A stretch of DNA of 64,000 nt from Blastocystis sp. Blastoise (Eukaryota > Protista > Bigyra: Opalinata), in the NCBI GenBank assembly GCA_039096225.1, contig JBBPEB010000013.1, forward strand, positions 868,001-932,000, read 5' to 3'. Position 1 is the stretch's first letter. Each line of letters begins with the position of its first letter. Shown here piece by piece: positions 1,466 through 53,290 of the stretch. The notes below the pieces were generated by a model, which saw nothing but the letters and a program-made list of their open reading frames with translations, did not search any database and had not been told where the DNA came from. Made by a program: the position numbers and the translations under genes.

Positions 1466-1529
1466 TATAGTATTAAATAATAAACAAAACAAATTAATTA
1501 TATAAAATATTAATATAATAAATTAAAGA

Positions 1530-1551: not shown

Positions 1552-2139
1552 TTAACAAGGCATAAGATTTCCATTAGAAAGTAAATAAAGTAAAGAATAA
1601 TAAAAGCAACCATTTGCATTACTTGTAGTTTTTTGGTGTTGAATAGGATTATATTGAATATTATGATTTTGAATAAATGATTTTGAAAAAGTAGGTTCAT
1701 TTCCTAATGATGAATAGTGTTCTATGTTTTTATTACCATTATAAATAACAGCTTCAAAATGACCATTATAAGGATCACTAGGACTTTCATGAAAGATCAT
1801 ATTAAATTTAGTTTGATCTTGATCTATATTTTGTTCAAAATCATCATAACTATTATAATAATTATAAGATTGAGAATTCGTTTTATTTAATTGTTTCATA
1901 ACATTTTCAGCACGATCACAAGCAACAGAAGAGGTAGGTTTATTTAAATAAGCATAATTATATAATTGAGATATTAAAGAATTGGGTATATTACAATATT
2001 GAGATAGAGTTTGTTTGAAATTATCAGGGGATCTAGGAGTAACATGACGAGTTTTATCAGATATAATAGGATTATCGCAATTCATTGAATTTTGAATTAA
2101 TTTCTCATCTTTACTCTTTACCAGATCCCCTCCCCTGAG
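1552..2139 (-). CDS. Adenain/Ulp1-like (clan CE) cysteine maturation protease, probably expressed as a -1 frameshift extension of the upstream ORF
   Basis: NGHFEAV (His), HYSSLG, IQHQ (oxyanion Gln), NGCFYYSLLYL (Cys) in the order typical of polinton/virophage proteases. Confidence 0.75.
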   Translation of the reverse strand, partial: LRGGDLVKSKDEKLIQNSMNCDNPIISDKTRHVTPRSPDNFKQTLSQYCNIPNSLISQLYNYAYLNKPTSSVACDRAENVMKQLNKTNSQSYNYYNSYDDFEQNIDQDQTKFNMIFHESPSDPYNGHFEAVIYNGNKNIEHYSSLGNEPTFSKSFIQNHNIQYNPIQHQKTTSNANGCFYYSLLYLLSNGNLMPC

Positions 2140-2145
2140 TTTTTT
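2026..2145 (-). other. Predicted -1 programmed ribosomal frameshift signal
   Basis: In-phase A AAA AAC at 2145-2139, 7-nt spacer, then AGGGGATCT (2131-2123) complementary to AGATCCCCT (2034-2026); conserved in copy B. Confidence 0.7.
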
Positions 2146-3746
2146 GATAACATATATTTCTTTTTTTTCCAAAACAATTCGTCACCTGTATTTAATGTTT
2201 CATTATTATCTATTTTCTGTTTTATAATTTGTAATTGTTTTAAATCAGCCTCTTGTATTTTACGTTTTTTTCGTGCCACTCCTGCAGGTATTATAAAATC
2301 TGTATAAAATGATACTAATGGATTCAAATCACCACCTCTTTTCTTTTTAGCTTCTTTTCCTCTTCTCATTCGTTCTAAGAATTCTGCTTTACTTAATTTA
2401 ACTCGACCACCATAACCTCTACGTTTAGCTCTTCTTGCAGCTATTCGTTTATCCCTTTCATCTTCTTTCCATTTTCTATCGACTTTCTCTTTATCATTTT
2501 GAGGGAAACCATAAATCTTATAAGGATAACTTTGTTCATCACGAGACATTGGTTTATAAGGTTGAGGAGGTTGAGATTGAGGATGTCTAGCAACTTGTTG
2601 TTGTGGAGGTGGTGGAGGTTGAACAACGGGTTGTGGATGTAGTCTATCATCTTCATCAAGAGCATCTTGCATTTCATCAGCTACATCATAATATCCTTCA
2701 AACATTTTATTTATTGTATTTCCTGAACCTATTTGTTTTTTCATTTCATTTAATGCTTGTTGACGTTTTAATTTTTCCATTTCAAATTCCATATCATTTA
2801 ATTCACTTGATTGTTGTGCCAAATGTGTATCATAATAAGCTTTTCTACCTTTAGCAAAAGAATCCATACCTTTATCAACTACACCTAATAGAGCTGGTGC
2901 ATAATCCATCAATCCGCTCCAGAATCCACCACCTCTTTTTACTCTTAATATACCATCACCACTTTGAGCTGAATCTAAATCTATATATTTTGGTATAATT
3001 GAAGGTCTTAACATTCTTCTTAATTTTGGATTATTAATTATTTTCTTATTTTTAATTGCATTCATAATTGCTGAAGCAACTGATATAGGAATCTTTCCAC
3101 CACGTTTAATTTTATGTTCATAGAATCTTTTGAATTCATCATCAAGATCATGATGACCGTCACCAACATATTGAGCTAAAATAGCTAATGCATCACGAGC
3201 TTTTCTATTAGCTTTTTTATCTACAATAGCATCTCTTATATCTAATACATTTCGTTGATACATATCTTTTACTTTATTTTTAATTGCATCACCAATACCA
3301 GAACCTTGATTATTCTCTAATTTATTGATTTCTGATTTATTTGGAATAATACCTCTACCAGATTTACGTCTTGGTTTACATGGATTTAATACCTTATATT
3401 GACGATCTTCACCATCTATTTTATCTTCTTCTGGACCAGCTGCTTTCATTACACCTTTACCTGCTGCTCTAGCACGAATTAAAGCACCATTTCCTTGTGG
3501 AACAGCATCTTTACCAAATGTTTTAGAACGATCTACATAATCATCTTCTTTACCATCATGTATTTCTTTACTTTCTAAAGTAGACACAGGCATAGATGAA
3601 TTTGGACCTATTTCATGAAATATTGGATTATATTGATCCATTTTATGTAATGGTTGTGTATTATATCGCCTATATTCTTTTCCAGTTGAAATTAAATTCA
3701 TACCAAAAGTACCAGGACTTGGCATTCCTAATATACAACTTTGCAT
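2118..3746 (-). CDS. Basic, Gly-motif-rich putative virion core precursor protein, 542 aa
   Basis: K/R-rich, with repeated xRGG/GxG motifs (IKRGGK, VKRGGG, GYGGR, KKRGGD) resembling adenain cleavage sites; adjacent to the protease. Confidence 0.6.
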   Translation of the reverse strand: MQSCILGMPSPGTFGMNLISTGKEYRRYNTQPLHKMDQYNPIFHEIGPNSSMPVSTLESKEIHDGKEDDYVDRSKTFGKDAVPQGNGALIRARAAGKGVMKAAGPEEDKIDGEDRQYKVLNPCKPRRKSGRGIIPNKSEINKLENNQGSGIGDAIKNKVKDMYQRNVLDIRDAIVDKKANRKARDALAILAQYVGDGHHDLDDEFKRFYEHKIKRGGKIPISVASAIMNAIKNKKIINNPKLRRMLRPSIIPKYIDLDSAQSGDGILRVKRGGGFWSGLMDYAPALLGVVDKGMDSFAKGRKAYYDTHLAQQSSELNDMEFEMEKLKRQQALNEMKKQIGSGNTINKMFEGYYDVADEMQDALDEDDRLHPQPVVQPPPPPQQQVARHPQSQPPQPYKPMSRDEQSYPYKIYGFPQNDKEKVDRKWKEDERDKRIAARRAKRRGYGGRVKLSKAEFLERMRRGKEAKKKRGGDLNPLVSFYTDFIIPAGVARKKRKIQEADLKQLQIIKQKIDNNETLNTGDELFWKKKKYMLSKNSGEGIW

Positions 3747-14522: not shown

Positions 14523-15995
14523 ATGAGAATCTTAAGAATTAAAGATAATATTCCTATTCAAAGCAATACTGATATTCTATCAAGTCCTTATATCTTTCAA
14601 TATCATTGGACTAATGTGGATAACACTTATATCAATTTCAATCAATCCTATTTGGATCTTACTGTCAAAGCAACTGTCACAGATAAAGCTGGACCAGTTT
14701 CTGTTTATTTAGATGAAACAGGTACTTCTGTTAGTTTCACCTATGATCAATTATGTCAATATTTCTTGGATCAATTAGTTCAAAAAGCAAATATTTATTC
14801 TATTATTGATTCCACTGATGTTGAAATGGTTTATACTTTACCTGATGGATCCGATCGTGCTTTGAAATATGAAGAAAACTGTACACATGCTTCACGTGGT
14901 CGTAAAATGATTTTATTAAAAGATATCAGTAAGAATGATTTAGAAAAATCTATGTATGGTGAAGATTTATCTGCAGATACTTATGAATTGAATTCTATTC
15001 GTTATATACGTGCACATCCAAATGAATCTATTCATATTGCTATTCCTTTATATCTCATTAGTGGTTTAGGTGTTGATGGAGATTCTTTAATATTAACTAA
15101 ACATTTCAATATGCTATTTAGAACGAGTACAATTGAATCCTTAATTGATAATAATATGAGTATTTATTTCAAGAATGGTGGTGCTAAATTATCAACACAA
15201 TGGTTACATCTAACTGATGAAAAATGGTTTAAGACATTTGAATTGGAATCAGCTACTATGAATTTAATGACTTATAAAGATATTCAATTCCAAACGAATG
15301 AATTATATAAAACTATACCTACATGTATTCAAGTCGATTATCAAAATACAAGAATAACTAGTGATCATTTCAATATCAATAGAGCTTTACCATTTATACC
15401 TGAATATATATTATACTGGTTTACAAATGGTTATAGTTCAACAACTATTAGTAATGTAGCTAGTCCATCTGTATGGCCTAAATATCAAAGTTGTTTGATT
15501 GGTGATGTTCAAATGTTCCCTCAAACTGAATTCCCTACTCAAATGTATTATCATAATCTTACTACTAAAGGTCATGTCTTCAATAATGAAGAAACTGCTA
15601 GTTTATCTTGTCCTAATAAAAATCTATATTGTTTATGGGCTGATAATTCAAATCCTGAAACTATTCTTAAATATGATGAATGGATTAAACATCCTATTTA
15701 TATTATTCCAACTAAAGCATTAATGAATATCCAATCAGATAGTGGTATAGAAATGAATTTTGATTGTAATCTAGATGTCCATGATATTGAATATGGTCAT
15801 GCTGATTCATCTACTGTTCCTGATGGATATACATGTACATATAATGAAACTACTAAAATATGGACACCTGACACTGGTGCTTCTTATGCCGTTGCTTCTC
15901 ATGCTGGTATTTATAAACATATTAATACTGAACTAAATGAGAAGCATCCTTATACCTTACATATGATTGCTGTACGTAGTGTACGTGATATTTAA
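14523..15995 (+). CDS. Major capsid protein paralog 1 (putative double jelly-roll), 490 aa
   Basis: YINFNQSYLDLTV N-terminal motif, beta-rich, homologous to the next ORF, located in the virion gene cluster. Confidence 0.65.
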   Translation: MRILRIKDNIPIQSNTDILSSPYIFQYHWTNVDNTYINFNQSYLDLTVKATVTDKAGPVSVYLDETGTSVSFTYDQLCQYFLDQLVQKANIYSIIDSTDVEMVYTLPDGSDRALKYEENCTHASRGRKMILLKDISKNDLEKSMYGEDLSADTYELNSIRYIRAHPNESIHIAIPLYLISGLGVDGDSLILTKHFNMLFRTSTIESLIDNNMSIYFKNGGAKLSTQWLHLTDEKWFKTFELESATMNLMTYKDIQFQTNELYKTIPTCIQVDYQNTRITSDHFNINRALPFIPEYILYWFTNGYSSTTISNVASPSVWPKYQSCLIGDVQMFPQTEFPTQMYYHNLTTKGHVFNNEETASLSCPNKNLYCLWADNSNPETILKYDEWIKHPIYIIPTKALMNIQSDSGIEMNFDCNLDVHDIEYGHADSSTVPDGYTCTYNETTKIWTPDTGASYAVASHAGIYKHINTELNEKHPYTLHMIAVRSVRDI

Positions 15996-16165: not shown

Positions 16166-17389
16166 ATGGAAGGATTCCCAAGACAATTCTTACCTTCAAA
16201 GGCAAATCAAACTATTAAACCTGTACAAATTCCTATTCTAGTTTCTACTAGTCAAGATTTATTAAATCAACCTTATCCATTTGAATTCTTATATAATTCA
16301 GTTGATAGTCCTTTTATTGATTTCAGTAATTCATTCTTAGAACTGAATTTCAATATTACAACAAATGCAGCTACAACTAGTTCTGTTGTACAACATTCTA
16401 ATATCTATAGTATTATTGATAAAATTACTACAGATCTTACGTTTGTATCTCCTACGGGTCAAGATATTCTTATTAATTATTCTGAATCTTCTATTGAATC
16501 CAGTAAAGCAAGAAAATTTGTTACTATTAAAGAATTAAGTAAAGATGAAATTGATAAATCTATGTATAGTATGACAGAATGCTTATATAATACAACCTTA
16601 AGCAGTATTTCTGGAATGCAAAGTTCTACTAAAGCTCAAGTTATTATTCCTTTATCTCTTATTACTGGTCTTGGTACATTTGATTGTGCTATTAAAGTAA
16701 AATCTTTGAAGATGCAATTCGTTACAAATTATTTAAAGAATCTATTTACAGGTACGACTAAAATCACTGCATTAACTTTTGATCGTGTTTATATTCATCT
16801 TCAACAAATTTATGATATTAATTTTGGTAATGATCCACGTGCTTTAATTAAATGTATTCCTAATAATTGTCAAATATCTGCATTTACTACACCTGTTTAT
16901 TCAGAAACATTCACAACAGCAGGTAAACCAACTCCACAACAATTCTTATCCAATAGAAGTGTTGTTTTCGTACCTGATTACTGTATGCTATATTTTACAA
17001 CTCAAGAGAAGAGTATGATCCCTATTAAGACTGAATTATTGAAGATGTGTCAATTCCAAATTGGTGGTCAAAATATCTTACCTAAGACGGATTTCCCTAC
17101 TACGTATAAAACAACGAATCCATCACAAATTATTCCTAATGCTATGCTTTATAATACTTGGAGATGTAATAGTCATCCTCAATCTCCTTTAAACGGTGAA
17201 AAGTGGTATGAACAACCTATTTATATATTCCCTATTTCAAGTGTTGTTGATGTCAATACTCGTAGTGGTTGTGAAGTTAATATCTCCTTATTAACTGAAT
17301 ATAATGGTGCAAATATTACTAGTGGTACTTATACTTTATATGCTCATTTTATATTTGTTAAATTTGTTAGAGATGGTGCAACCAATTAA
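16166..17389 (+). CDS. Major capsid protein paralog 2 (putative double jelly-roll), 407 aa
   Basis: FIDFSNSFLELNF, NIYSIID, IPLSLITGLG, PIYIFP shared with the 490-aa ORF. Confidence 0.7.
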   Translation: MEGFPRQFLPSKANQTIKPVQIPILVSTSQDLLNQPYPFEFLYNSVDSPFIDFSNSFLELNFNITTNAATTSSVVQHSNIYSIIDKITTDLTFVSPTGQDILINYSESSIESSKARKFVTIKELSKDEIDKSMYSMTECLYNTTLSSISGMQSSTKAQVIIPLSLITGLGTFDCAIKVKSLKMQFVTNYLKNLFTGTTKITALTFDRVYIHLQQIYDINFGNDPRALIKCIPNNCQISAFTTPVYSETFTTAGKPTPQQFLSNRSVVFVPDYCMLYFTTQEKSMIPIKTELLKMCQFQIGGQNILPKTDFPTTYKTTNPSQIIPNAMLYNTWRCNSHPQSPLNGEKWYEQPIYIFPISSVVDVNTRSGCEVNISLLTEYNGANITSGTYTLYAHFIFVKFVRDGATN

Positions 17390-18220: not shown

Positions 18221-18536
18221 ATGGTGAATAAAATAAATCCATTAAAAGAAACACGTAAAGGATGTGGAGTCTTAGAATTTAAATATGGAAAATCACATCA
18301 TAAAACATATGAATCAAAATTTATATTGATTATTGCAAGAACATTCTCAGGTAAATCTTTCTTAACTGTGAATCTCTTATGTTCTATGGATCTTAAAAAT
18401 AAATATAAACAAGTCACAGTAATTTGTCCTGATGCATCCAATAAGAATGAATGTTATACATCCTTTCAAGATATTTGTGAACATGCTGGAATTGATTATA
18501 AATGGTATGATTCTGTAGATGATAAATTTAAAAAGA
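18221..18536 (+). pseudogene. A32/FtsK-like genome packaging ATPase, 5' part (interrupted by Helitron 1)
   Basis: Walker A IIARTFSGKS; joins in frame to 32116-32843 when the Helitron is removed (347 aa). Confidence 0.9.
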
Positions 18537-18574
18537 CAAGCGTTTCACGGCCTGCCTACGCAGGCCTACGCTTG
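18537..18574 (-). terminator. Helitron 3' terminal hairpin
   Basis: GGCCTGC-ctac-GCAGGCC (18549-18566) nested inside CAAGCGT...ACGCTTG (18537-18574). Confidence 0.85.
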
Positions 18575-18769
18575 AGTTTTATTTTAAAATATCTATTTTT
18601 AGTTTTTGGTTTTTAAGTTTTAACAAAACAATAGAATATTCTATATTTAACTTTTAAGACAACAAATAAAAATTGAAAAGAGAAAAATAATAAATAAAAA
18701 CAAATATATTAACAGACAATAACAAATATAAAAGAAATCAAAAAACAAATAAAACAAATAAAACAATAA

Positions 18770-21700
18770 CTAATTTAAAACTCCATCAAAAATGCAATTA
18801 GTCGTAAATACCTTATTAGGATAGTCTTTACTAAGATGTCCTTGATTATTGTTATTACAATTTTCAGCATAAATATGTAAACCATTAAAAGAACGAACTC
18901 TACTAAAAGCAACATATAATTGACCATGACTAAATACAGGTCTCTTTAAATATAATCCAACATTTTTAAATGTTTGACCTTGTGATTTATTAATAGTCAT
19001 AGCAAAAGCTAATCGAACAGGAAATTGTTTTCTTCTCATCTTAGTAGGAAGTGAATCATCTGAAGTAATTAAACTGATTCTTGGAATAAATACAATATCT
19101 TCACCAGGTAATAAATTATCTGGCTTATTTAATAATTGAGCACGAATAACATTATTTAATGTTTCAAGAACAACTAATCTTGTTCCATTACATAAACCCT
19201 TCTTTATATTAAGATTTCTCAATAACATAATAATACAGCCTTTTCTTAATCTTAATTTATGAGGAGGAAATCCTTGAGGAAGAAGAGTATTAAGAAATTC
19301 AGGAGAATAAGCAGCTCTTTCAGAATCATTAACTATTTCATCTTCTAAAGTATCAAAACTATAATATATTTTTTCTGATTCTGAAGAAGGTATTAAATCT
19401 AATACTTTCTCATTTATATCAAAAGTATCTTCATTCGTACAACATAAAATACAATTCTCAGATAAATCTTTTCTATGTTGTTCTGATAAAATATTTCTAT
19501 TATGAAGTATATTCTCCCATATCTCTTTATATAAATTTTCTGTACTTATACATTGTGAAGGTATTTCTACAATATTATCATTCAAATCAGATTCATTATT
19601 TAATCGTTCACCATTTCCTACTTTCATTAACCATTCTTTAAAATCTAAAGCATCTCTATCTGCTCTCATATTCTGAACTAAATGACATTGTATAAAATTA
19701 TTCCAATATTTAAATCTTTTCAAACATACACCAACAGTAGATGATTCATTTCCATTTTTAACTACTGGTAAACATTGTCTAAAATCTCCACCTAAAACAA
19801 TAGTTTTACCAACAAAAGGATATTGAAGACATGGATCTTCAGAATCTATTGAACTAAATAAATCATGTAATAAATTATCAAGAACTTCTAAAGCATAAAT
19901 AGAAGCCATAGGTGCTTCATCCCAAATAATAATAGCACATTTTCTTAAATCATTTGCTTTTGCACTACTTCTTGTTATATGTGAAATAGACATTTCATTT
20001 AGATCAAGTGGTAATCCAAATACAGAATGAGAAGTACTTCCTCCTGATAATAAAGTAGCTGCTATTCCTGTGAATGCAACAGCTAATACAGGTTTTTCTC
20101 TTGTACGAATCATCTTGATCAAAGTATTATATAAGAATGTTTTTCCAGTTCCACCAGGACCATCAATAAAGAACATATTATTATTATGAGGTTGAGTATT
20201 ATTAACAGATACCATAATTCTATCAAATATTTCTTTTTGTTCTCTATTTAACATTTGATAATTTCTTTCTGCTTCTCTATGTGCAACATCAAAATCATAA
20301 AATTCTAATGTAGAAACACCACTATTAGGATTAAAATGTGAAGTATATTGAATAGTAGGCATATTAGTATATTTACCTCCATTTGATTCTATTAATGTTT
20401 TGATATTATATAAAGCTCTTGGATAACAATAATTGATTACAATAGGATCTTGATCAATAATATCAGGATCAGTTGAAAGAGAATGATTAATACGTTCATT
20501 TATAGTAAAATGATCTATTGTATATTGATAATATATATCAGAAATCATTTCATATTTAAATTCATTCCATAAATCCATTGCTTTATCAGTAATATTATAA
20601 TATACAAATAATAAAGCAAATACTAATCGTAATTGAGAAGGATGACAATCATGCATTACTTCATCTAATATATGTCTATATTCATTAGTATCATCTAATA
20701 ATCCTCTTGCTATACATACTCCTTCATAAGTTGGATAAGGTAATTCTCCATCATACATTCTTAATGATTCAAAACTTGTTGGTCTATTTACATGAGTTAA
20801 TAATAATTTTAAACAAAATGCTTCTTTATTAGTTGGATTTATATAAGGTATTCTTCCAAGTGTCTTCGAATTCTTTTGTCTTGGTTTCCATATATGTTCT
20901 CCTTTACACCATGTATAATATTGAGGAAACATATCATATGTCATAAACTCTGGTTCTTCTAAAGTAGGAACATATAAATGATTATTTAAATCATCATTTG
21001 CTTTGAAATATGCTTCTAACATAGATAATTTATTTCCTTGTATTTCTTCTGCTTGTTCTTCTGAACCATCTGTATATACTATATTCTTATCATTCTCATC
21101 ATGAATCAATAATATTTGAACAGCTATATTTGATTGTACTATAGGAAATCCTAATATTCTCCAAACTGCTTCAGTTGATGATATATATCTTGCATCTAAA
21201 TATTGTTTAACTTCATTATTATTTGTTTCATTTGAAGAAGCTGATAATTCAGCTCTCATTGAATCATGACCTTTTGTTGTATATTTATATAGATATTTTA
21301 CTGTATGTAAACTATAAACTGCTTCAACATTAATATGTGCTTCTAATTTGAGTGATAAATATGGATTATATGGAACAACATATTCATTAGTAGCTTCTAA
21401 ATCACCATTAGTACGATGAAATACTACTTTTCTTCCATCATTTGGTCTAAAATATAAAGGATAAGAATCATTAGGAATTGTAGTACATTCTTGAAATGGT
21501 TTAGGAAATCCTTTCTTACATATTCCATGAGAATCTAAACATGGAGAATTAGATACATGAGGACCATGTATATTCATTGTACTTACTATTTTAAATAATC
21601 TAGGATTCTTTTCTTCATCAGGAAGATAAGCACATATAATAGAATCAAGTTCATTAGTATCATGTATTTTATCTTGTTGTTCAACATTCAATAAGATATG

Positions 21701-23645
21701 AGCATGAGGTAATCCTCTCTTTTGAAATTCAACAGTATAAGTAATAGCTTGTGCTTTACCAAATACATTCTCATCTTTTAATAAATGATATAAATATTTC
21801 AATTTAATTGCAAATACTCTACAAACTAAATCAGGTCTTTCCCATGCTTCTTGATTAGGATATAAATTATCTACTATTTCTTTCCATTTTGGATTACATG
21901 TAAAAGTAATAAAATAATCTGGTTTACCATAATATCTTACTATTGTCATTGCATCTAAATAAGCTCCTTTCATATATCTAGGTCCTCCTACAAAACCACT
22001 ATTTAATATAATAGGTTTTCCTATTCCATTTGTTACTTCTTCATCTGTTACTTGTTCTCTTCTTCTCTGATTATATTGTCGTAACACATTATAAGATTCT
22101 GCTCTTAATTTTGATTGATTCATTTCTATAAATGATAATCGTTGTTCTTCTATTTTAGAATAAGCATCTACAATATATTGTAAGAATAATTTTCCTCCTG
22201 ATAAGAAATAATTCTTATTAGGAAATGATCTTGGAAAACAAAGAAAAGAATAAAAATCTTTTAAAGTAAAAGATGATTTCTCATATACAGGATTTCCTAT
22301 TAAATCTATAGGATATCCTTCATTATTAAATTGTTGATAATTAGCTAATAAAGTAATTGATTTTGAAAAATCATCATGAGTTTGTCTTGAAGACTCTCTA
22401 TCATCATTATCTATTTCATCTTCTTCATTATCTAATAATTGATTTCTATTATTATATCTACTATTTCTATTTGATTCTCTTTCTATTTGTTCTACTTGAA
22501 TGTTAGTATTTTCTATTGTATTTGAATTGATTTGAGAATGTATTTCTATATTATTATTTCTTCTTGGAATATAATTAGGATTTCTTCTTAACTCACTTTT
22601 AGATGCAAGAATAAATAATGGAATTCCTGTGGGATAAAATATAGGATAAACCATAGGATCACAAAATGGATTATCATATTTCATTCTTGTGAAATGTTGT
22701 CTTATTTCTTCATTCATATTCATATGATTTGTATTATTATTATTATTAAGATGAATTCTTGGATAGCATCTAAATTCTGTATGAGGAAATGTTTCCATAG
22801 AATTAATAGGAACTATAAGTGCTATTTCATGAGAAGCAGAAGGAGTATTATATCTTCTTTGATCATCTGAATGTAATGTTTTGAATTTTAATGAAACATC
22901 TACTTGTGATATATGAAGATTATTATTATTATTTGTAGCAGTAGTTACTTCTTCATGTAATGTCTTAAAAGCATTCATTAATTCATTATTTAATAATGAA
23001 TTATGTAATACTCTCATTATTTCTGTATTTAAATTATCATAATATTGATTATTTGATCGAAGTTGAAAAGCTTCTTCTTGATCATAAATATATATTTGAT
23101 TATAATTAGGAGTAATACCTTCAGGAGGATATAAATCTGCCATAGAATGATATATATTTCCATGTACTTTATAGAAATATATTCCATTATTATCTAATCT
23201 TGTTTGTGTATCAGTACATGACATAGAAGCAAAAGCTATTGAATTATTATACCTACGAATATCTTTCTTAAATTGTTTTGAAGAATCTGTATTATCATTC
23301 AATAAGTTTTGTATTGATATATCTGGCTCTGATAATGAACCTAAACGTACTTTTCCACTACGACAACAACCACTATATTGACTATTCTTTAATATAATAT
23401 TTCCTTCTGTGTCAAGTGTCCATTGTCTTCTTCTTTTTGTATATATTATTGTATTATTTATTGTATCATTATATGAATTTGATGGTTCTTCAAAAAATGT
23501 TGTATCATAATTAGTTGAAAACTTAAAGTTGTTTCTTTCATGTTCAAAATGTAAAGCATTACAACATGAACATTTAAATATCATTTTACCCAAGTCATAA
23601 TAGTCATACTTATTATCATTTTCATCAATTATTTGATATGAGCTT
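18770..23645 (-). CDS. Helitron Rep-helicase (HUH endonuclease plus Pif1-like SF1 helicase), large final exon
   Basis: LGKMxxxCxxC, FITFTCNPKW, VEFQKRGLPHAHILL (HUH), YLYKYTTKG (Y2), DGPGGTGKT, IIWDEAPM, AMTINKSQGQT, HGQLYVAFSRV; the TTG start in the ORF track is preceded by an in-frame splice acceptor (tatatAG at ~23646). Confidence 0.95.
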
Positions 23646-26600
23646 CCTATATATAAAAGAATTGTTTAATATTTTTCAAGATTCATATTTAAAAACAATA
23701 TATTACTATTATTCATACTTATTGGAGAAAAAGCCAAAATGTCTCTTCTTGTAAAAATTAAATTATTTAATTCATCGTTATTGTCTAGAAGTATATCTAT
23801 ATATTATTATTTATAATTCATAATTATATCAAACATATAATATATATTTATATTAAAAAAAACTGTTATAAAAACAAAAAAATATAATTAAAGTTGTAAT
23901 TACTTGATAGATTTTGATTATTCTCATCATTAGTTAATTGATCACTAATATCATGATTATTTATTATGTAATCATCGTTTTGTTCACTTAGTAAATTTAT
24001 GCTGTTAGCAACATTTTCTTCGTTTATATTATTATTATCCAATTCTATTAAGTTATTTACACTATGAGGTACTATTATTATCCTATTTTCAACGTCATTC
24101 ATTTCTATCATATTTTCATCATTAATAGTTACTTCAGAATGATCATTAACATTAGATGTCGTTATGTCATTTAAGTTCCTAGAGATACTATTATTCATAT
24201 CAATAATATCCATGTTATTATATAAAGCAAGTGCTTCGTCATTGATTATTGATTCAGATGATGATTTTTCTCTATTTTCAATTATATTATTGTTTGTGAT
24301 ATTTATATCTTCCAAATGTACTGTCAAATTTAAGTCATTGGAATCAATAATGTTGTTATAAGTTGGAAAAGTATTATTTTGTGAGTTGTTACTATTAATA
24401 GTTTCTTTATCCTGATTTAAATCTTCAACATTTTTTTCATCATGAAAGTCATCATCAATTAAATCGTGTATACCATTATTAATTTGGAACTCAAAGTTAT
24501 CAGTAACATTTTTGTTAAATTCAGTGTCATCATTGTTTTCGATTACCGATTGATAATCAGAACAAATACATTCATTGTCATCTGTTTTATTGAGATTAGA
24601 TACTATAAAATATTTTTTATCATTTCTATTATTATTATATTCATTTGAATCTCTATTAGTTAAGCTAGGTTCATAATGTGTTAAACTTCTTTGCAATATC
24701 TCTTTATTACTCATTAAATCAGGGAACAACTGTGTCGATAAAACATGTTTTTCAGTATCATTAATTGATATTTTTTTGTTTTTATTTTTTTCACCTATAT
24801 ATATTATTGAATAGTCTAAAAATATTGTTAAATGAAAGAAAAATCCTAATAAAAGAAAAAAAAAGTAAAACATGTTAAAAACTGACTATGGAAATTATTA
24901 TATAAACATTTCTTATGTTGTAATATATTTTTAATGTTTTAAAAACTAAAATTTTATTCATTAATTTAAAAAACAATCATTTAATTTGAAAACATTCAAA
25001 AAAAAAAAGGTTAATAAAAATAAATATAGAAAATAATTAATTAACAATTAAATAAATAAAATTATAATATGAAATATATATTTAATTAGTACATACTATC
25101 AGAGTCACTATTCTCCAAAAATGTTTTCAAAAGTTTTGCTTTCATATCATTTCTTGCTGTTCTTTTTATTGTTTTATTATCTAAAAAAAAAGAATATTAA
25201 GAAATATAATAAAAATATTAAATTATATCAAAATAATATATATATATATATACTATCGATCTTTGATTCCAAAGTGGAATCATCATTTGATCTAAAACTG
25301 AATAAAGAGCTTTGATTTCTAAGTATTATTTCATTTGTGACATTCCCATGATTATTCTCATTAAGAGAATCTAAAGAAATATATAATCATAAAAATAATC
25401 ATTAAAATCATCATTAAAATAATCATTCAAATAGTCATAATCATAATAATCATGGAAATAATAATGAAAAAAGTCATAAAAATAATCATTAAAATAGTCA
25501 TAAAAATATCCATAAGAATAGTCATAAAAATAATTATAATAGTCATAATAGTCATAATAGTCATAGAAATAATAATAATAAACCAACATATTCATGAAAC
25601 ATTATATATATATTACTATATGAAATTAATATAATTACTTACCTGAATTTGTAAAGCCAAAAACCTTCGATAAAACTTCTAGAGTTTGTGGAATTAAATC
25701 ATTAAGTATTTCTTTAGCTAGAATAATAAAAAATGATAACAATAATAATGAATACATAATATACATATTTATATATATATACAATAATGCATCCCACTAA
25801 CGCTCAGCATAGTACTTCTATCGAATTCTATTCTATTTGTTGCATTTTTATAGCCTATAAAAAATAAATAATTCATATAAAAAATATATATATATACCTT
25901 TGTTAGATATACTAACACCATATTTTGAGAAATTCTTCGTATTCAGATTAGTATTACAATTTTGGTTTGATATATTTCCATATTTGTGTTTCTTTGCTTT
26001 TTTATGTTTCTTATTTTTCTTTTCCGCCGATCCATCTTTCGCTGAATTTTCATTAAGTTTATTATCAGAAGCAGAAGTAATATTAGAAGAATTATATATA
26101 TCTTTTGAATTATTAGTAGTAGTATTAGTTACATCAATAGCTTCTTTCCTTTCTTTTTGTTTAAAAGAGACATAATCTGATAAACTTAATATCTTTTTAA
26201 ATTCAATTGGATTATCATTTTTATCGTCATTATTTATACCTATAATTCATATAAAAAAAATAAAAAAATAATTTCAATATAAAATTTACAATATAGAAAA
26301 TATATATATATATATATATATATTCATACCTATTTGTTTAGATGATTCAAGAGGAGGAGCAGAAGAAAAACTGTGAAGAACTGGATATTCATCTATATAT
26401 TTATAAGAAAAGTAATAAAAATTATTATCAAATATAAAAATTACCACAGTCTGATTGATCTATATCTATAAATTTAGAATGAACTATAGATATTATCTTA
26501 TATATATATATTTAAATAATATACCTAAATAATCTTTATCACTATTTATTTTTTCTTTATTCCTTTCATTTGAATCAATACCGCTAGGAGTTTTATCTTC

Positions 26601-26960
26601 TTTATATCTATTATTATAACTTTTATCATGAATACCTATAAATGTATAAAGAAAAAAGAAATAATATATTCATTAGTATTAATATAATATAAATATAAAT
26701 GTTTCATGATGATTATTTTTATTTGAATATACTAATAATTGTACATATTTTGATAAATAAAAATATAATAATAATATAGAAAAATTGTAATAATACTATT
26801 TAAGAAATAAAGAATAATTATTACAAAATAATTATCACATAAACATAAATATATAATAATAGTAGAAATAAATAAAAATGTATACGTTGAGATGAATTTA
26901 ATATTTGAGAAGAAACCATATTCGTATTACTTTTTTGTATATCTAAAATGAATTGTTTTT

Positions 26961-27009
<49 letters not shown>

Positions 27010-28120
27010 TATTCAATGATGAAATGTTATTGGTTTTAGGTGCTTCTACAATGCTGTTTTTATTTTTAATACCTATATATTACAGTAATAGATATATCAG
27101 TATTAGAATATAAAATAAATAATTAATATAAGATATAATAAAAAAAAATAATAAATGAATAATAATATAGTTATATATTGAGTTAAATATTTAATGTAAT
27201 CATTTTTATATTAATAGATATTTGCTTATAATGTATCGAGAAATAATACTAATAAAGAAATAAATTATAATAATAGAATATTATGATAGGAACAATAGTA
27301 GATATAATGAAAATAAATAACAATAGAATACTTTAGTAACAATAATAGAAATAATAATATGAGAATTAATAAACATATATTCTATTGTACATACTACTGG
27401 GAGTATTTGAAGGTTTATTATTGCCAAGTAACTCCTTATTTTCCTGAATATTTTTATCACCTATACAAAAATAAGTATTATAAAAAATAAGTAATAATTA
27501 TATACTAACTGTACTATTGGTACATTTCTTGTTATTTAATAAATCATTGTTATTTGATTTTGATTTAATACCTATGGAGAGTAATTAATTTATTAATAAT
27601 AAATGTTATACCAATATCTTTTGAAGGCTTATTCAAATCCGAAATCTTTTTACTTACAGAATTATTTTTATTACCTAAATAATAATAAGAGTAGCGAGAT
27701 TTGAAATTATACTTATATTATAATAGCGGATAATTAATGAAATAGTAAGAATTTCTAAAAGAAAGTAATCACAGTAAATTATATATACATTCTCGCACAG
27801 GTGAAAGATCAGGAAGTGATATAGGTTTATAATGTTTCACTATATATAAACATATAAATATATATAAATATATATATGATACTTTTTGATAATGGTAATG
27901 GAAGAATAAGTGACGATTCATCAATAGATTCTTTTGAAGAAGATAATAATTTATTTTGGTCTGCTTTTTTTTCTAAATATATATATATATATATACAGTA
28001 TTCATTTAATATAATATTTAAAAAATTATGATTATATTATTATTATATATAGTTTAGATATATTTATGATTAATAATGGTAAATACTTTCTATTCCCACG
28101 TTTTCTACTTTATTTGTTGC

Positions 28121-28197
<77 letters not shown>

Positions 28198-29635
28198 CCA
28201 TCTTTATTTGTAGCCATTAAATCATCTGTTGTCTTACTTATTTGTTCTAAGTAATAAGTATAAGAATAGTAATTATATATATAAAGTAATAACAAAGATA
28301 ATAATAAAATAAAATATTGAAAATATATATATATATATAAATAAAATAAAAATAATATATAAAACATTGTTATTATCTTTATATGAATAATAATGTTAAT
28401 TATAATTGACAATAATGAATGCAATATTAATAATTATTATGATATATATATACTCTCTATAACATGACTGTTTTCTTGAGTTGACGATTGACTTATAGAT
28501 AGAATCATTGAATCCATTACTATATAATATAAAAAATAAAAATATTTAAAACATTCGTGTTGTTAAAAAAATTATAATAAAGAAATAAAATATATATACC
28601 TGATGCAATTGTTGCAATATTGCTATTGTTACGTTTAGCTTCACTCCCAGTTGGATTTTGAGCTGCATTGTCTATAGATGTTAAGTACCTATCATAAAAT
28701 AATAAATATACCTTGAGACTCTAAATCTTCTGACTTCTTATTGTCCCTCTGTTTATCAATATTAACTGATTCTGCTGATTCTAAAGATACATTATATATT
28801 TAGAATAATGGAGTATAAGAATATACCTTCAGTTGTTGTTGAAACCTGAGATACATCTATTTCTTGCTGAGCTATATACATGTAAAGATAAAACATGAAT
28901 ATATTGATATATATAATAAAATATGTGACAGAATGGTAAGATATATAAGAAAAACATACAGCTTTGAGATCTGCGTTGTTGCATATCTTCTTTGTGTTGC
29001 TTTTTCTTTGAATACTCTTTGCCAAATGTCATGATAGCTTATTAATATATATGTTTTTCTTTGACAGAAGATATTATTTATAAGATAATAGTTCTTATAT
29101 TCTTGTTAATAATAAATAATAGAGTGAAAAAATCTTTTTCCCCATGTTTTTGTTTTAGTAGATGACCTTCAAAAAACAAACTTTCAGCTGGAAGATCAGT
29201 TTTAAAATGTCTTTTCTTAAATAAATATTTAAAAAGAATATATCCATTTTATAAATCTAACACTGGTTTGATTCATGAAGTCAACAGAAGCAAATATAAA
29301 GGCATAGTAGTAGAAATTATGAACAAAATCCGCCAATTTGTTTGTATCATATCAAATAACTTTATAGCTTCAAATGGAAGCATGTAGTGTGTGTAAATCC
29401 TGATTGTGGTGAAGTCTAAATTTAGTTATAATTACTAAAACCGTATTTAGCCAGATTTTGAAAAGTATTGCTTTTTTAAAGTATATATATTTAGAATAGC
29501 ATTATATTTACTCTTATTTTCTATTTGAATCGCTTTATCTATAGTAGATAAATAAAAACACGTAAATGAGTAAAGAATTGTCAGTATCATAAAATAAAAA
29601 GGACTTCCTACGTCATAGTAATCGTTTACAGCCAT
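23646..29635 (-). CDS. Multi-exon coding region inside the Helitron (RepHel N-terminal extension or second/captured gene)
   Basis: Many short N/K/S-rich exons bounded by ...tatAG and GTata... with (TA)n-rich introns, e.g. exon 26239-25898; exact exon chain not resolved. Confidence 0.6.
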
Positions 29636-30470
29636 TGTAGTTTACTAAACTGAACAAACATGATGTTGACACATGTTATAGAATGCATTCTTATTTTTAA
29701 GACTGACTCAAACATGGTCATTGATATTAAATATGCTATAAAGTACTGCTGGTAATAGTTTGTTATTCACTTATGATTCTCATATATGGAATCACTTTTA
29801 ATAAATAATAAATTGTAAAAATATATATATATTTGGGGTATCTATAATATTAGATAAGCAAAACCATTTATGTAATAAACGCTATAACTACAGCCTAGTA
29901 GTTTTAATCTTTATTAATCAAAAGTATACACATTTTGACACATAGGTAAAAAAACAACCACGTTTATTTCCAATAATGTTTTGACTAATAACAGTATTAA
30001 ACACTCTAATAATTAATTTTACAAACAGTGAATTGAATCTCTTGTTTTAAGGCACGTAAACACACAATTCAAAACTGTTTTAACCTTAAAATTTGATATT
30101 TAGACGTAATATTTACACATTAGACTATATGTATCCTTCAAGACATATTTGACTACTTTTTAACAACTTTAGAGCCAACATGTCCAGTTTGTCATTCACT
30201 CCTCAACTCCACTTTTGACTATTTCTTTTAGAAATGCAATACACATATACTCTAGTTTTCAAATATATAAAAATTAATTGTCAAATATGAATTTGATTTG
30301 TCAACTTTCGGAAAATTTTTAGAAAAATGATTTTTCAATTTTCAGTTTTTTAACATGTTATACTATTGACTCTACTAAACTCATTTCTTAATTAATTTTA
30401 AATATTAAAACTTATATTATTAATATGTTTTATTCTCTATATTTATTTGTTAAAATTATTTAAAATAATT

Positions 30471-31450
30471 AAATATTGACTGAGAAATTAATGTTATAAA
30501 GTATACCCTTTTTTCAAAAATTAATTTTTTTATGTTTTGCATATATAATTTTTTATCTCAAAAGTTATTATATATTTAGATAAAATTTTTATAAATATTA
30601 AAACTATAGGTTATCTATTTTATAAATAAGTTTTATTTATTTTTTAAAAATTAATATTGATGGAGAAATTGTCAAAATAAATTATAGTATCAAAAACATT
30701 TTCTTTTTTTAAACGATTTATTTCACTAATTAAAGACTTATAAAAACATATTTATTTATTTAAAGCTTATTTATGACATTTACAACTCATAATGACTCAT
30801 AACTAACTTTTTAGAACAAACATTGTCTGTATCAGTTCAACATGTTGTCTTAAAATTTTCAAATAAGTCACACAAAGTGTCCATATATGATTCTAAACAC
30901 GAATTGAAACGTTTTAAGAGTTTATTGAGTTAACATTGTCTGGTGATCTGTTGTCAAAGTCTTTTAAAAACAAAATAAAATTGTAAAATATGTTTATTTT
31001 GGTATTTAGTGATTCAATATGAAGTCAAATGTCAAAAATATTTATTATTGATGAGAATATTGACAAAAAACAAATAAAAAAGTTTTGAGAAAAATTTCGA
31101 ACCTTATTTTTTTATTGAGTTCAACTATTGTCTCCTGTAACATCATTTTTTAATTATTTAAAAAAGTGACAAAAACGCATCATGTTTTGGTTGTCTTATA
31201 TCTAAATATGTTTTAACTTTATTATTTTATAAAATATTGACTGAGAAATCACAATCACAAAATATACCCTTTTTAGAAAATTTTCATTTTTATGTTTTTA
31301 ATATAAACGTAGATATTTTAGTCAATATTGAATATTTAGATAAAATATTAAAAATGCATCATATTTATGTTATCTAGTTTCAAGATATGTTTTTACTTTT
31401 TTTATATTTTGAATATTGACAGAAATATCAAGATCACAAAATTGGGTATC
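30471..31450. repeat. Degenerate ~180-bp repeat in the Helitron 5' subterminal region
   Basis: AATATTGA(C/T)...GAAAT recurs at ~30471, 30653, 31232 and 31412, with downstream TATACCCTTTTT or GTATCAAA motifs. Confidence 0.55.
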
Positions 31451-32115
31451 AAAGAAGAAAAAATTTTAAAAGCTAATACTTCTTTATTAAAAAGTATATG
31501 ACAAATATAAAACACATTTATGATGGATATAGAGTTAAATAAATATAAAACAGCTCAAATAAGTTTATATAAAAGGAATGTGTTGGATATCAGTTTGTCT
31601 TTTGTCGTTATTTAAAGGAATTATTGTTGTTTCAGAGTAGTTGAGGTCATATTCATTACATATGAAATGGTTTTAGAGTTTAAAGTTAGTAATGTGTGTA
31701 TTGATATGTTGTCAAGTCATAAATATAAACGAATCTACCCGTCAAAACTATATATAAGACCAACCCGTCAATAAAAGTTAATTTTATAAAAATAAATATA
31801 AAGTATGTGAATAGATATAGGAAAAATAAGAAAACAATAAAAAATGAAAAACGAAAAATGTGTGTTTTCATAAAAATGAAAAATATTGGATAAAATAAAA
31901 ATAATCCAATAATTTTGGTTAAAATTTTGTGCGAAAATGGTTTTTTGCGTTTTTTAGCCAGAAACTTAGAGTTTTCGAAAAATTTCTTTAACAGTCATTT
32001 TTAGAATTGTGTTCCGGATTTTTTGATGTTATTTTTATTTTATAAAAGTTAATAACAAAGTCAATAATACGAAAAATGTGTGAGACACCGTACTTTTGGG
32101 CTGCTAAATTAAGGA

Positions 32116-32843
32116 TATTAATTAAAACTGTTGATGAATTAGTCAATACATATAAATTACCAGAACATAATTTTATTGTATTGGATGATATCTATCCATT
32201 ATCTAGACAAACCAAACAATTGATTGTATCTATATTATCTAAAGGTCGTCATTATAAACAGAATGCTATTATATGTCTTCAAAGTCATACAGATGTTACC
32301 AATCAATCTATATTAAGTCAAGTATCTCATTTCTTTATTAATAGTCAAATCTTAAAACGTGATCCTGGATTCTTACCAGATAAATTAAAGATTATGCCAT
32401 CGAATCTAAATGAAATTCTTACAGATGAAGAATTAATGAATGATCCACATCAATTCTTTATGTTGAAACAAGGTAGTGATGATTTAACAATATGGACTAA
32501 TCCTGATTGTGGTAGTAAACAGAATGTATATAAGATGGTAAAGAAAAGGAAATGGACAGAAGAAGATAGTGAAAAAGAGAAACGAGAAGAACAAGGTGAA
32601 GTATCAGGTAGTGGCATTAAACGTCCTAATGAACATATATCTACATATGAAAAGAAAATGAAGAAGTTTTTACCTGTTGAAGAAGAAGTCTCATTGAAAG
32701 GTATTGAACGAGATGAAAAAGATAAACCTAAAGAATCCATCTTACAAATCATACAAGATCAAATCATACAAGATAGTCAACGACGCATTTTTAATCCTTA
32801 TTTAAATAAAAAACATTATTCTGGTTATCCTTCTTTTCATTAA
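32116..32843 (+). pseudogene. A32/FtsK-like packaging ATPase, 3' part
   Basis: Walker B FIVLDDI, SKGRHY and ICLQS motifs. Confidence 0.9.
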
Positions 32844-34808: not shown

Positions 34809-35049
34809 TGATACTACAAGCGTTTCACGGCCTGCCTACGCAGGCCTACGCTTGAGTTTTATTTTAAAATATCTATTTTTAGTTTTTGGTTTTTAAGTTT
34901 TAACAAAACAATAGAATATTCTATATTTAACTTTTAAGACAACAAATAAAAATTGAAAAGAGAAAAATAATAAATAAAAACAAATATATTAACAGACAAT
35001 AACAAATATAAAAGAAATCAAAAAACAAATAAAACAAATAAAACAATAA

Positions 35050-42900: not shown

Positions 42901-43240
42901 TTTTATCATGAATACCTATAAATGTATAAAGAAAAAAGAAATAATATATTCATTAGTATTAATATAATATAAATATAAATGTTTCATGATGATTATTTTT
43001 ATTTGAATATACTAATAATTGTACATATTTTGATAAATAAAAATATAATAATAATATAGAAAAATTGTAATAATACTATTTAAGAAATAAAGAATAATTA
43101 TTACAAAATAATTATCACATAAACATAAATATATAATAATAGTAGAAATAAATAAAAATGTATACGTTGAGATGAATTTAATATTTGAGAAGAAACCATA
43201 TTCGTATTACTTTTTTGTATATCTAAAATGAATTGTTTTT

Positions 43241-43289
<49 letters not shown>

Positions 43290-44358: not shown

Positions 44359-44435
<77 letters not shown>

Positions 44436-49146: not shown

Positions 49147-49194
49147 TTCTAGAACATTCTAGAACATTCTCGAAACTTCTAGAACATTCGAGAA
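49147..49194. promoter_or_regulatory. Heat shock element-like array (10 perfect units) upstream of recombinase 1
   Basis: TTC ta GAA ca TTC ta GAA ca TTC tc GAA ac TTC ta GAA ca TTC ga GAA, ~90 bp before ATG 49283. Confidence 0.8.
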
Positions 49195-49282
49195 CATGAG
49201 AATCTTAGATATTTTATTTTGATTTTCTTATGTATTATTCTTTTGAAAATAGAAGTTTTAAAGATTCTACTTGAGAAAATCA

Positions 49283-50218: not shown

Positions 50219-50284
50219 TTTTTAATATTTGTTTTGTTGAATAATTTTAATAACTAAACAACTAGTAATAAAAGGATATAAAAA

Positions 50285-50659: not shown

Positions 50660-50761
50660 TATTTAAATTAACCAATGATTAAACAAAACAAATTAATTAT
50701 ATAAAATACTAATATAATAAATTAAAGATTCTACAAATAGAGCCAGTTCAAAATGAATGTT

Positions 50762-51003: not shown

Positions 51004-51591
51004 TTAACAAGGCATAAGATTTCCATTAGAAAGTAAATAAAGTAAAGAATAATAAAAGCAACCATTTGCATTACTTGTAGTTTTTTGGTGTTGAATAGGA
51101 TTATATTGAATATTATGATTTTGAATAAATGATTTTGAAAAAGTAGGTTTATTTCCTAATGATGAATAGTGTTCTATGTTTTTATTACCATTATAAATAA
51201 CAGCTTCAAAATGACCATTATAAGGATCACTAGGACTTTCATGAAAGATCATATTAAATTTAGTTTGATCTTGATCTATATTTTGTTCAAAATCATCATA
51301 ACTATTATAATAATTATAAGATTGAGAATTCGTTTTATTTAATTGTTTCATAACATTTTCAGCACGATCACAAGCAACAGAAGAAGTAGGTTTATTTAAA
51401 TAAGCATAATTATATAATTGAGATATTAAAGAATTTGGTATATTACAATATTGAGATAGAGTTTGTTTGAAATTATCAGGGGATCTAGGAGTAACATGAC
51501 GAGTTTTATCAGATATAATAGGATTATCGCAATTCATTGAATTTTGAATAAGTTTTTCATCTTTACTCTTTACCAGATCCCCTCCCCTGAG
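51004..51591 (-). CDS. Adenain-like protease (copy B), -1 frame
   Basis: Ortholog of 1552-2139; slippery site at 51597-51591. Confidence 0.75.
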   Translation of the reverse strand, partial: LRGGDLVKSKDEKLIQNSMNCDNPIISDKTRHVTPRSPDNFKQTLSQYCNIPNSLISQLYNYAYLNKPTSSVACDRAENVMKQLNKTNSQSYNYYNSYDDFEQNIDQDQTKFNMIFHESPSDPYNGHFEAVIYNGNKNIEHYSSLGNKPTFSKSFIQNHNIQYNPIQHQKTTSNANGCFYYSLLYLLSNGNLMPC

Positions 51592-53216
51592 TTTTTTGAT
51601 AACATATATTTCTTTTTTTTCCAGAACAATTCGTCACCTGTATTTAATGTTTCATTATTATCTCTTTTCTGTTTTATAATTTGTAATTGTTTTAAATCAG
51701 CCTCTTGTATTTTACGTTTTTTTCGTGCCACTCCTGCAGGTATTATAAAATCTGTATAAAATGATACTAATGGATTCAAATCACCACCTCTTTTCTTTTT
51801 AGCTTCTTTTCCTCTTCTCATTCGTTCTAAGAATTCTTCTTTACTTAATTTAACACGACCACCATAACCTCTACGTTTAGCTCTTCTTGCAGCTATTCGT
51901 TTATCCCTTTCATCTTCTTTCCATTTTCTATCGACTTTCTCTTTATCATTTTGAGGGAAACCATAAATCTTATAAGGATAACTTTGTTCATCACGAGGCA
52001 TAGGTTTATAAGGTTGAGGAGGTTGCGAATGTTGAGGAGGTCGAGGTTGAGGAGGTCGATCAACTTGTTGTTGAGGAGGTGGTGGAGGTTGAACAACGGG
52101 TTGTGGATGTAGTCTATCATCTTCATCAAGAGCATCTTGCATTTCATCAGCTACATCATAATATCCTTCAAACATTTTATTTATTGTATTTCCTGAACCT
52201 ATTTGCTTTTTCATTTCATTTAATGCTTGTTGACGTTTTAATTTTTCCATTTCAAATTCCATATCATTTAATTCACTTGATTGTTGTGCCAAATGTGTAT
52301 CATAATAAGCTTTTCTACCTTTAGCAAAAGAATCCATACCTTTATCAACTACACCTAATAGAGCTGGTGCATAATCCATTAATCCGCTCCAGAATCCACC
52401 ACCTCTTTTTACTCTTAATATACCATCACCACTTTGAGCTGAATCTAAATCTATATATTTTGGTATAATAGAGGGTCTTAACATTCTTCTTAATTTTGGA
52501 TTCTTAATCATTTTCTTATTTTTAATTGCATTCATAATTGCTGAAGCAACTGATATAGGAATCTTTCCACCACGTTTAATTTTATGTTCATAGAATCTTT
52601 TGAATTCATCATCAAGATCATGATGACCGTCACCAACATATTGAGCTAAAATAGCTAATGCATCACGAGCTTTTCTATTAGCTTTTTTATCTACAATAGC
52701 ATCTCTTATATCTAATACATTTCGTTGATACATATCTTTTACTTTATTTTTAATTGCATCACCAATACCAGAACCTTGATTATTCTCTAATTTATTGATT
52801 TCTGATTTATTTGGAATAATTCCTCTACCAGATTTACGTCTTGGTTTACATGGATTTAATACTTTATATTGACGATCTTCACCATCTATTTTATCTTCTT
52901 CTGGACCAGCTGCTTTCATTACACCTTTACCTGCTGCTCTAGCACGAATTAAAGCACCATTTCCTTGTGGAACAGCATCTTTACCAAATGTTTTAGAACG
53001 ATCTACATAATCATCTTCTTTGCCATCATGTATTTCTTTACTTTCTAAAGTAGACACAGGCATAGATGAATTTGGACCTATTTCATGAAATATTGGATTA
53101 TATTGATCCATTTTATGTAATGGTTGTGTATTATATCGCCTATATTCTTTTCCAGTTGAAATTAAATTCATACCAAAAGTACCAGGACTTGGCATTCCTA
53201 AGATACAACTTTGCAT
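51570..53216 (-). CDS. Basic core precursor protein, 548 aa (copy B)
   Basis: Ortholog of 2118-3746 with a 6-aa longer Pro/Gln-rich segment. Confidence 0.6.
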   Translation of the reverse strand: MQSCILGMPSPGTFGMNLISTGKEYRRYNTQPLHKMDQYNPIFHEIGPNSSMPVSTLESKEIHDGKEDDYVDRSKTFGKDAVPQGNGALIRARAAGKGVMKAAGPEEDKIDGEDRQYKVLNPCKPRRKSGRGIIPNKSEINKLENNQGSGIGDAIKNKVKDMYQRNVLDIRDAIVDKKANRKARDALAILAQYVGDGHHDLDDEFKRFYEHKIKRGGKIPISVASAIMNAIKNKKMIKNPKLRRMLRPSIIPKYIDLDSAQSGDGILRVKRGGGFWSGLMDYAPALLGVVDKGMDSFAKGRKAYYDTHLAQQSSELNDMEFEMEKLKRQQALNEMKKQIGSGNTINKMFEGYYDVADEMQDALDEDDRLHPQPVVQPPPPPQQQVDRPPQPRPPQHSQPPQPYKPMPRDEQSYPYKIYGFPQNDKEKVDRKWKEDERDKRIAARRAKRRGYGGRVKLSKEEFLERMRRGKEAKKKRGGDLNPLVSFYTDFIIPAGVARKKRKIQEADLKQLQIIKQKRDNNETLNTGDELFWKKKKYMLSKNSGEGIW

Positions 53217-53290
53217 TTTTTTATTTCAATTATAAAATTATTTATAAACAAAACAAATATATTAATAAAAATAAATTTAACATTAAAAAT

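Follow-up and report, generated by a model that had tools for sequence, protein, structure and literature searches.

In the betaretrovirus mouse mammary tumour virus (MMTV), the gag-pro junction reportedly uses the slippery heptamer A AAA AAC. The stimulator of the MMTV gag/pro shift has been shown in PMC5009743, a source that also places A_AAA_AAC among the most shift-prone heptamers and gives spacers of 5-9 nucleotides (nt). Few eukaryotic DNA viruses use frameshifting according to PMC8310308. For adintoviruses and their relatives, hypothetical -1 shifts giving a Hexon-Adenain fusion ('Hexain'), and others in Penton, were proposed from KnotInFrame predictions in a preprint (Buck et al., PMC11071296), the supplements of which list the 'Hexain' proteins. 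Here we describe a junction of a related kind in 64,000 nt of the genome of Blastocystis sp. Blastoise (contig JBBPEB010000013.1, positions 868,001 to 932,000; hereafter the window), where the putative core polyprotein gene of a virus-like element is followed on the minus strand by a protease reading frame. It is probable that programmed -1 ribosomal frameshifting yields a minority core-protease precursor of 731 amino acids (aa) at this junction. The fusion is well supported by protein comparisons, because relatives form one open reading frame (ORF), because the residues ahead of the first protease methionine (Met 2085, named after its position) are conserved, and because this methionine is lost in a sister family. 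Of the routes to such a fusion, -1 frameshifting appears the likeliest. A product of about 731 aa had been postulated in a first-pass annotation of this DNA, and homologues with both proteins in one ORF back it.

The window holds two tandem copies, A and B, of an AT-rich element of about 22 kb (1-11097 matches 49460-60555 at 98%). The heptamer, in phase at 2145-2139, and the 7-nt spacer TCAGGGG were found as the first-pass annotation had placed them, and the protease indeed lies in the -1 frame relative to the 542-aa core ORF. This frame is open from 2181 to 1552, bounded upstream by a TGA at 2184-2182, and 536 core codons together with 195 codons of the -1 frame make up the 731-aa fusion. The 6,284 codons of 17 element ORFs contain 21 in-phase canonical heptamers, and the chance of meeting one in the 21-codon overlap is by itself about 7%. 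The overlap uses codons that are rare in the element (CTC, 6 of 501 Leu codons; CTG, 4 of 501; AGG, 5 of 214 for Arg; GGG, 4 of 229 for Gly). A second heptamer, A AAA AAG, likewise opens onto the protease frame, and its Lys run is broken (KEKK) in 9 of 21 copies of the core protein. In-phase heptamers are fewer than expected (21 against 59), which was considered as a sign of selection against slippage and rejected; the shortage extends to the other two phases and to the Helitron gene, and is therefore general avoidance of runs and no evidence on slippage. Between the core stop and Met 2085 the two copies differ at three positions (2104, 2100 and 2098), all synonymous in the -1 frame, as had been remarked from the outset. 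It is equally correct that the TTG 'start' of copy A is lost in copy B, which has CTG at 2172, a difference that is uninformative for a eukaryote. Over the whole protease frame there are five silent changes and one replacement, and the frame thus appears to be under purifying selection between the copies.

Beyond the spacer a long hairpin is predicted. Its lower stem has 11 contiguous pairs (2131-2121 with 2026-2036, including one G-U), above which follow a UAAA bulge of 4 nt, six pairs (2116-2111 with 2037-2042), an internal loop and another six pairs (2109-2104 with 2046-2051). The 9-bp stem described earlier (2131-2123 with 2034-2026) is present, but it understated the structure, being part of this bulged hairpin of 23 bp. 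The folding prediction gives -33.8 kcal/mol with pair probabilities of 0.84-1.0, and an alternative register in which the spacer pairs with 2031-2024 reaches -31.6 kcal/mol. Compared with dinucleotide shuffles the z-score is -3.65, with 1 of 200 shuffles as stable. When the -1 peptide was recoded synonymously 2,000 times, no version reached the same stability (mean -17.9, sd 3.3), so codon use does not explain the hairpin; when the overlap was held fixed, 2 of 2,000 were as stable. The junction fold also beats all 1,799 sliding 115-nt windows along the 17 ORFs (best -30.3), and of the folds that follow the 24 in-phase heptamers it is the strongest (mean -16.7, sd 6.4; next -27.9). Rfam gave no family at threshold over the hairpin and one chance match of miRNA type (E 0.12).

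The frame break is shared by a family of proteins. NCBI lists hypothetical proteins of Blastocystis sp. Blastoise, a stramenopile of the tortoise gut, with 82-98% identity to the 542-aa ORF, and all 21 database copies of the core, including the two of the window, end in KKYMLSKNSGEGIW. This ending is kept despite the 26 residues ahead of it being of two clearly diverged types; the break is therefore fixed and not a lesion of a single copy. The SKN encoded at the heptamer is also present in 21 of 21 copies at the protein level, and its DNA (AAA AAC) was seen in two. The core ORF itself has no match in Pfam, PHROGs or Atlas and no ATG-initiated extension into the protease, and its designation as a putative core protein comes from composition, cleavage motifs and position.

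More distant relatives carry core and protease in a single frame. A profile search gave six matches and a search for longer proteins four, and both led to P0055, a 617-aa ENA protein from a cluster of 30. P0055 aligns with the window core first over its 338 N-terminal residues (E 1e-26) and a second time directly ahead of the junction, at RLSKEEFLERMRRGKEAKK (E 8e-11), and then reads stop-free into the protease. In its cluster 11 of the 15 listed members read from core into protease, one starts at the Met and three are short; in the P0044 cluster two of three members do the same. P0045, P0051 and P0052 (533 aa) are further single-ORF core-protease proteins from the named genome; these are gene models and were given less weight than the ENA and Logan calls. 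In the P0001 and P0002 clusters, with a protease about 60% identical and several members on contigs of 16-24 kb, none of 21 members reaches further upstream of the Met than 13 residues, which suggests that this group has a frame break at the junction too.

The 13 residues before Met 2085 are conserved in all but one relative group, and the sequence SKDEKLIQ is kept in the P0001/2, P0043/71, P0044/50 and P0055 groups. The sister family P0043/P0071, from the named genome, has a Leu at the position of Met 2085 (IQEHLDC), and P0045 has no Met there. Four NCBI models of the sister family (P0043, P0048, P0056 and P0071) show three junctions between core and protease (QQWGGLEESK, QQYCDN twice, and KLKEESK) and also extend into the next gene. 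Their junctions are probably false introns bridging the frame break, and since they disagree, the models were left out of the count of in-frame fusions. For the 3' arm of the hairpin, the encoded residues read TPRSP in the window and the sister family (4 of 4 members with the block). In the P0001/2 group they are RPKSL or QPKSL (18 of 18 that have it), and all 15 members of the in-frame groups that have it carry AKSI or AVSI; members without the block (1, 3 and 3, plus all three of P0045) were set aside. This division, P-[RK]-S-[PL] in frame-broken groups against AKSI or AVSI in in-frame ones, is suggestive of a link between the 3' arm and the break. There is about an even chance that the frameshift with its long hairpin is conserved in the window family, the sister family and the P0001/P0002 viruses, some other members of this lineage of gut-protist Polinton-like viruses being in-frame, and that Gag-Pro logic has evolved independently in both forms. 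No order of events is claimed for fusion and break, because the protease tree is unresolved.

The downstream protein appears from its structure model (pLDDT 64, built with four sequences) to be a clan CE (adenain/Ulp1-like) viral maturation protease. Compared with viral structures, the model matched the MELD virus protease best (E 2.4e-4), together with the Tetraselmis virus 1 protease and S273R of African swine fever virus (ASFV); 3 of at least 500 matches were at E 0.001 or better. In the PDB the best matches were of Ulp1/SENP/pS273R type (E about 1e-3 to 1e-2), with none at 0.001 or better. A sequence search of solved structures gave a single match, judged to be due to chance. Ulp1-type proteases usually have an Asp where the window protease has a Ser (YSSLG, at 1716-1702 on the minus strand). 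The acidic triad residue seemingly is replaced by Ser in all close relatives; in P0046 and P0047, two related proteases, this stretch is YSDSLG or YYDPYG. Clan CE proteases cut at GG-X or GX-G (PMC6048507), and a stricter adenain rule has a hydrophobic P4, (M/I/L)xGG-x (PMC7998265). The first-pass annotation had placed the adenain motif (M/L/I)xGG just before the protease. LRGG agrees with it here, but the P4 residue is not conserved, and what relatives keep at the junction is GG or GxG (PTGG, PSGG and KGKG there; KRGG elsewhere in the core).

In the proposed mechanism most ribosomes would remain in the 0-frame and stop seven codons past the heptamer, inside the hairpin, giving an abundant 542-aa core precursor. 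A minority, stalled by the predicted hairpin, would slip back one base at A AAA AAC, and this tandem -1 slippage would lead to ...SKN-LRGG/DLVK... and thereby to a scarce 731-aa precursor from the same mRNA. The fusion would then enter the particle together with the core, cleavage at the Gly-Gly would free a protease of about 191 aa, and the slip would set the core:protease ratio at a low value.

Such a mechanism needs both reading frames on one mRNA. The motif TGTTTTGTT is found 12-77 nt past the stop of 13 of the 19 ORFs examined, with a one-mismatch version after three more; it is not found after the core, nor after two ORFs with Helitron-cut ends. In convergent pairs it is present downstream, in divergent gaps it is absent, and it thus marks gene ends. 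That it does not separate core and protease, as first noted, holds: no copy with fewer than two mismatches lies between 3785 and 1491, and none with fewer than three in the 120 nt after the core stop. Being a gene-end motif, its absence after the core argues for a shared 3' end and not against an internal promoter. Before arriving at Met 2085 a scanning ribosome would meet 57 AUGs from the core start onwards, and scanning therefore cannot plausibly reach the protease on an mRNA beginning at the core start. We infer that core and protease share one mRNA. The motif resembles TGTTTGTT and may act as a 3'-end signal here. In Blastocystis the TGTTTGTT element lies 4 nt downstream of poly(A) sites (PMC4159000), and it is reported as not enriched in tortoise isolates (PMC12129017). 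Examples of TGTTTTGTT are seen at 1491, 3785, 9642, 16072 and 50230, and the 3'-end signal kept by the virus may be an older or a foreign one.

Several observations weigh against programmed frameshifting. Junction DNA has been seen in copies A and B only, which are 99% alike, and scans of viral, metagenome and genome contigs gave no DNA of relatives. Contigs of X1 cover 1910-2062 but leave out the junction, and X2 and X3 yielded no match, which speaks neither for nor against the shift. Between these two copies there are no compensatory base changes in the stem, and copy B loses one upper pair. The stimulator would be a long-loop stem rather than a pseudoknot. The 3'-arm pattern is one of protein sequences and may be one event, as none of the seven inner branches of the protease tree is starred. 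The ENA and Logan metagenomic calls were assumed to be intron-free, and 22 frame-joining GT-AG pairs lie within 250 nt. Met 2085 is kept by most relatives, including the P0001/2, P0044 and P0055 groups, and the P0001/2-type calls, which begin 13 residues before it, have an unseen start codon that could be a true ATG. The retained Met would suit a nested transcript that starts inside the core 3' end, has the same 3' end, and gives the protease from Met 2085 or from the CUG at 2124-2122, a candidate near-cognate start. The P0001/2-type proteins are called from the position of this CUG, which has G at -3 and +4, and the missing gene-end motif is silent on promoters. A nested start nevertheless seems unlikely: the Met is absent in P0043/P0071, identical proteins are assigned lengths of either 177 or 190 aa, pointing to a weak TTG or GTG codon and not ATG, and of the 17 upstream regions compared none is as rich in GC as the 60 nt ahead of Met 2085 (0.33, with 0.00-0.22 in the others). 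Both the AUG and the CUG would also lie within the hairpin, and the heptamer, the hairpin and the upstream RGG would be left unexplained.

An inefficient intron linking the core and protease frames (such as 2175-2135, 41 nt; 2185-2160, 26 nt; or 2185-2130, 56 nt) is less likely again. The GT-AG pairs would allow it and the introns of tortoise isolates vary in length (PMC12129017), but the acceptors here are purine-rich and without a pyrimidine tract, and the 41- and 56-nt versions would cut the Arg of RGG. The sister-family NCBI models do join core and protease through apparent introns, yet with their differing junctions and their run into the next gene they look like prediction artefacts. Moreover, 21 of 21 core models stop at the W, the search for longer proteins gave no spliced form, and the other genes of the element are single long ORFs. 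It is quite improbable that the break is a fixed lesion or a silencing, whereby the element would itself produce scarcely any protease, or none (unless by reinitiation), and borrow that of an in-frame sister element in the same genome. Such sister models are at hand in the same named genome (P0045/51/52), the 177-aa protease is absent from the protein collection searched, and both copies in the window are damaged elsewhere. Against this, the protease frame is intact, with its excess of silent changes, the catalytic His, Gln and Cys are kept, and a specific heptamer and hairpin sit at the break; the upstream AUGs make scanning or reinitiation improbable as well. Stuttering of an RNA polymerase on the A8 (2168-2161) or A6 (2145-2140) run, both of which lie in the overlap, would by insertion of one A give an in-frame mRNA. 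This is very improbable, as 9 of 21 copies have a break in the Lys run, the A6 run is short, and a 3' hairpin at ribosomal spacing would be left unexplained. Programmed frameshifting thus remains the preferred explanation, and the features on which it is built are collected in Table 1.

Table 1. Position of the junction features and associated reading frames in the window.
Feature	Position	Strand	Remarks
Putative core polyprotein ORF, 542 aa	2118..3746	-	Basic (102 K+R); four GG sites (three KRGG), eight GxG
Slippery heptamer A AAA AAC	2139..2145	-	In phase with the 542-aa ORF (TCA AAA AAC; Ser-Lys-Asn); stop seven codons further on
Second in-phase heptamer A AAA AAG	2160..2166	-	In the A8 run; weak fold at the canonical downstream distance
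Spacer UCAGGGG, 7 nt	2132..2138	-	Between heptamer and predicted hairpin
Predicted stimulatory hairpin	2026..2131	-	23 bp; arms 2131-2104 and 2051-2026
0-frame stop TAA	2118..2120	-	Inside the 4-nt bulge of the predicted hairpin
-1 frame LRGG-DL	2122..2139	-	Putative cleavage site after GG; repeats RGGDL of the core
Protease reading frame	1552..2139	-	195 codons when counted from the shift and 177 when counted from Met 2085; predicted clan CE fold
Catalytic residues	His 1761-1759, Gln 1635-1633, Cys 1608-1606	-	Invariant in nine aligned proteins
Gene-end motif TGTTTTGTT	1483..1491	-	After the protease; the first to be met past the core start
Copy B core (548 aa) and protease frames	51004..53216	-	Protease frame differs from copy A by 6 nt and 1 aa
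Copy B cassette	51478..51597	-	Heptamer, spacer and lower stems as in copy A; lacks one upper pair, -29.4 kcal/mol

By its gene content the element appears Polinton-like and not a Polinton proper, because it has a primase-helicase (phrog_1156, E 2e-9), a weak match to tyrosine recombinases (E 0.06), a putative Helitron-split P-loop ATPase and capsid-like genes, and because no match to PolB (protein-primed in Polintons proper) or rve integrase families was found among the 20 ORFs scanned. The same 20 ORFs gave no match to Gag, reverse transcriptase or rve families. Other Blastocystis viruses bear PolB (PMC8502044), and membership of the virophages (Maveriviricetes) is defined by matches to virophage profiles for the major capsid protein, the ATPase and the protease (PMC9952930). 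The two capsid-like paralogues, ORFs of 407 and 490 aa, are adjacent at 14523-15995 and 16166-17389 on the plus strand and are 28% identical (E 3e-39). The 407-aa ORF has an Atlas score of 0.97 to viral clusters, in one of which 10% of the members carry PF21738 (double jelly-roll-like); a single-sequence structure model of it was unusable (pLDDT 32). ORFs of 223 and 811 aa are candidates for minor capsid (penton) proteins by position only.

Two near-identical Helitrons of 13.6 kb each sit within the first element copy, at 18536-32125 and 34816-48363; they are 99.7% alike, with a Rep-Pif1 ORF of 1,604 aa. The first interrupts the putative packaging ATPase (18221.. / 32076..), the 18221 ORF having weak FtsK/P-loop matches (E 0.02), and the second lies 8 nt past the stop of a 265-aa ORF. 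A basic ORF of 345 aa at 32897-33934 on the plus strand has three Gly-Gly sites (RLFGG, VRYGG and ERCGG) and is possibly a second precursor cut by the protease. Between the protease and a 124-aa ORF lies a 51-aa ORF with a hydrophobic stretch (1465-1310, minus strand), which has its own gene-end motif at 1238. Repeats of 10 bp of the TTCTAGAACA type occupy intergenic gaps at 49147-49197, 55844-56009, about 1300-1330 and 1530-1550; they build a long imperfect palindrome ahead of the primase-helicase gene and are candidate origin or protein-binding sites. Copy B stops at about 60555, and the 598-aa ORF is shortened there (59115-60555).

A core-protease frameshift in a Polinton-like virus or virophage was not found in a literature search that had most subscription papers outside its reach; the nearest published proposal is the hypothetical Penton and Hexon-Adenain shifts of PMC11071296. 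The term 'frameshift' is absent from PMC12220804, 10.1101/2023.08.22.554363, PMC11161782 and PMC12129017, and in PMC8097293 it refers to decay. If frameshifting is confirmed, one Polinton-like lineage would offer a natural pair of an in-frame and a frameshifted core-protease gene, by which protease dosage and recruitment in virion maturation become directly testable. 'Separate' or unannotated protease ORFs in such elements may then be recoded fusions, and the junction would provide the first -1 reporter for translation in Blastocystis-type protists.

The adenovirus protease AVP, the mavirus protease MVP and ASFV pS273R resemble the protein described here in clan CE fold class and in having GG-X or GX-G sites in their precursors. 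They are described as separate proteins, with no recoded fusion mentioned in the available text of PMC7998265 and PMC6048507, and the adenovirus virion is given there as having 7-50 protease copies against 500-800 of pVII. In the adintovirus Hexain, as here, -1 slippage is predicted to join a virion protein to a protease of adenain type. The partner there is the major capsid protein, while here it is a putative core polyprotein and the fusion is backed by in-frame relatives. Those relatives, P0055 and P0050/P0044, have the homologous core and protease in the same order, with Gly-Gly or Gly-x-Gly just before SKDE; however, they use one ORF, which would make the protease 1:1 with the core, and do not keep the 3'-arm residues. 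Alpharetroviral Gag-PR is likewise made in-frame. The arrangement proposed for the junction resembles that of MMTV gag-pro, where a structural precursor is fused to the maturation protease by a -1 shift at A AAA AAC. The differences are a double-stranded DNA Polinton-like element, a cysteine protease of clan CE and a predicted long bulged hairpin in the present case, against an aspartic protease and a compact pseudoknot in MMTV. The likeness to retroviral Gag-Pro is one of convergence and not of homology, which the locus would illustrate: it would work like a Gag-Pro, but it is not one.

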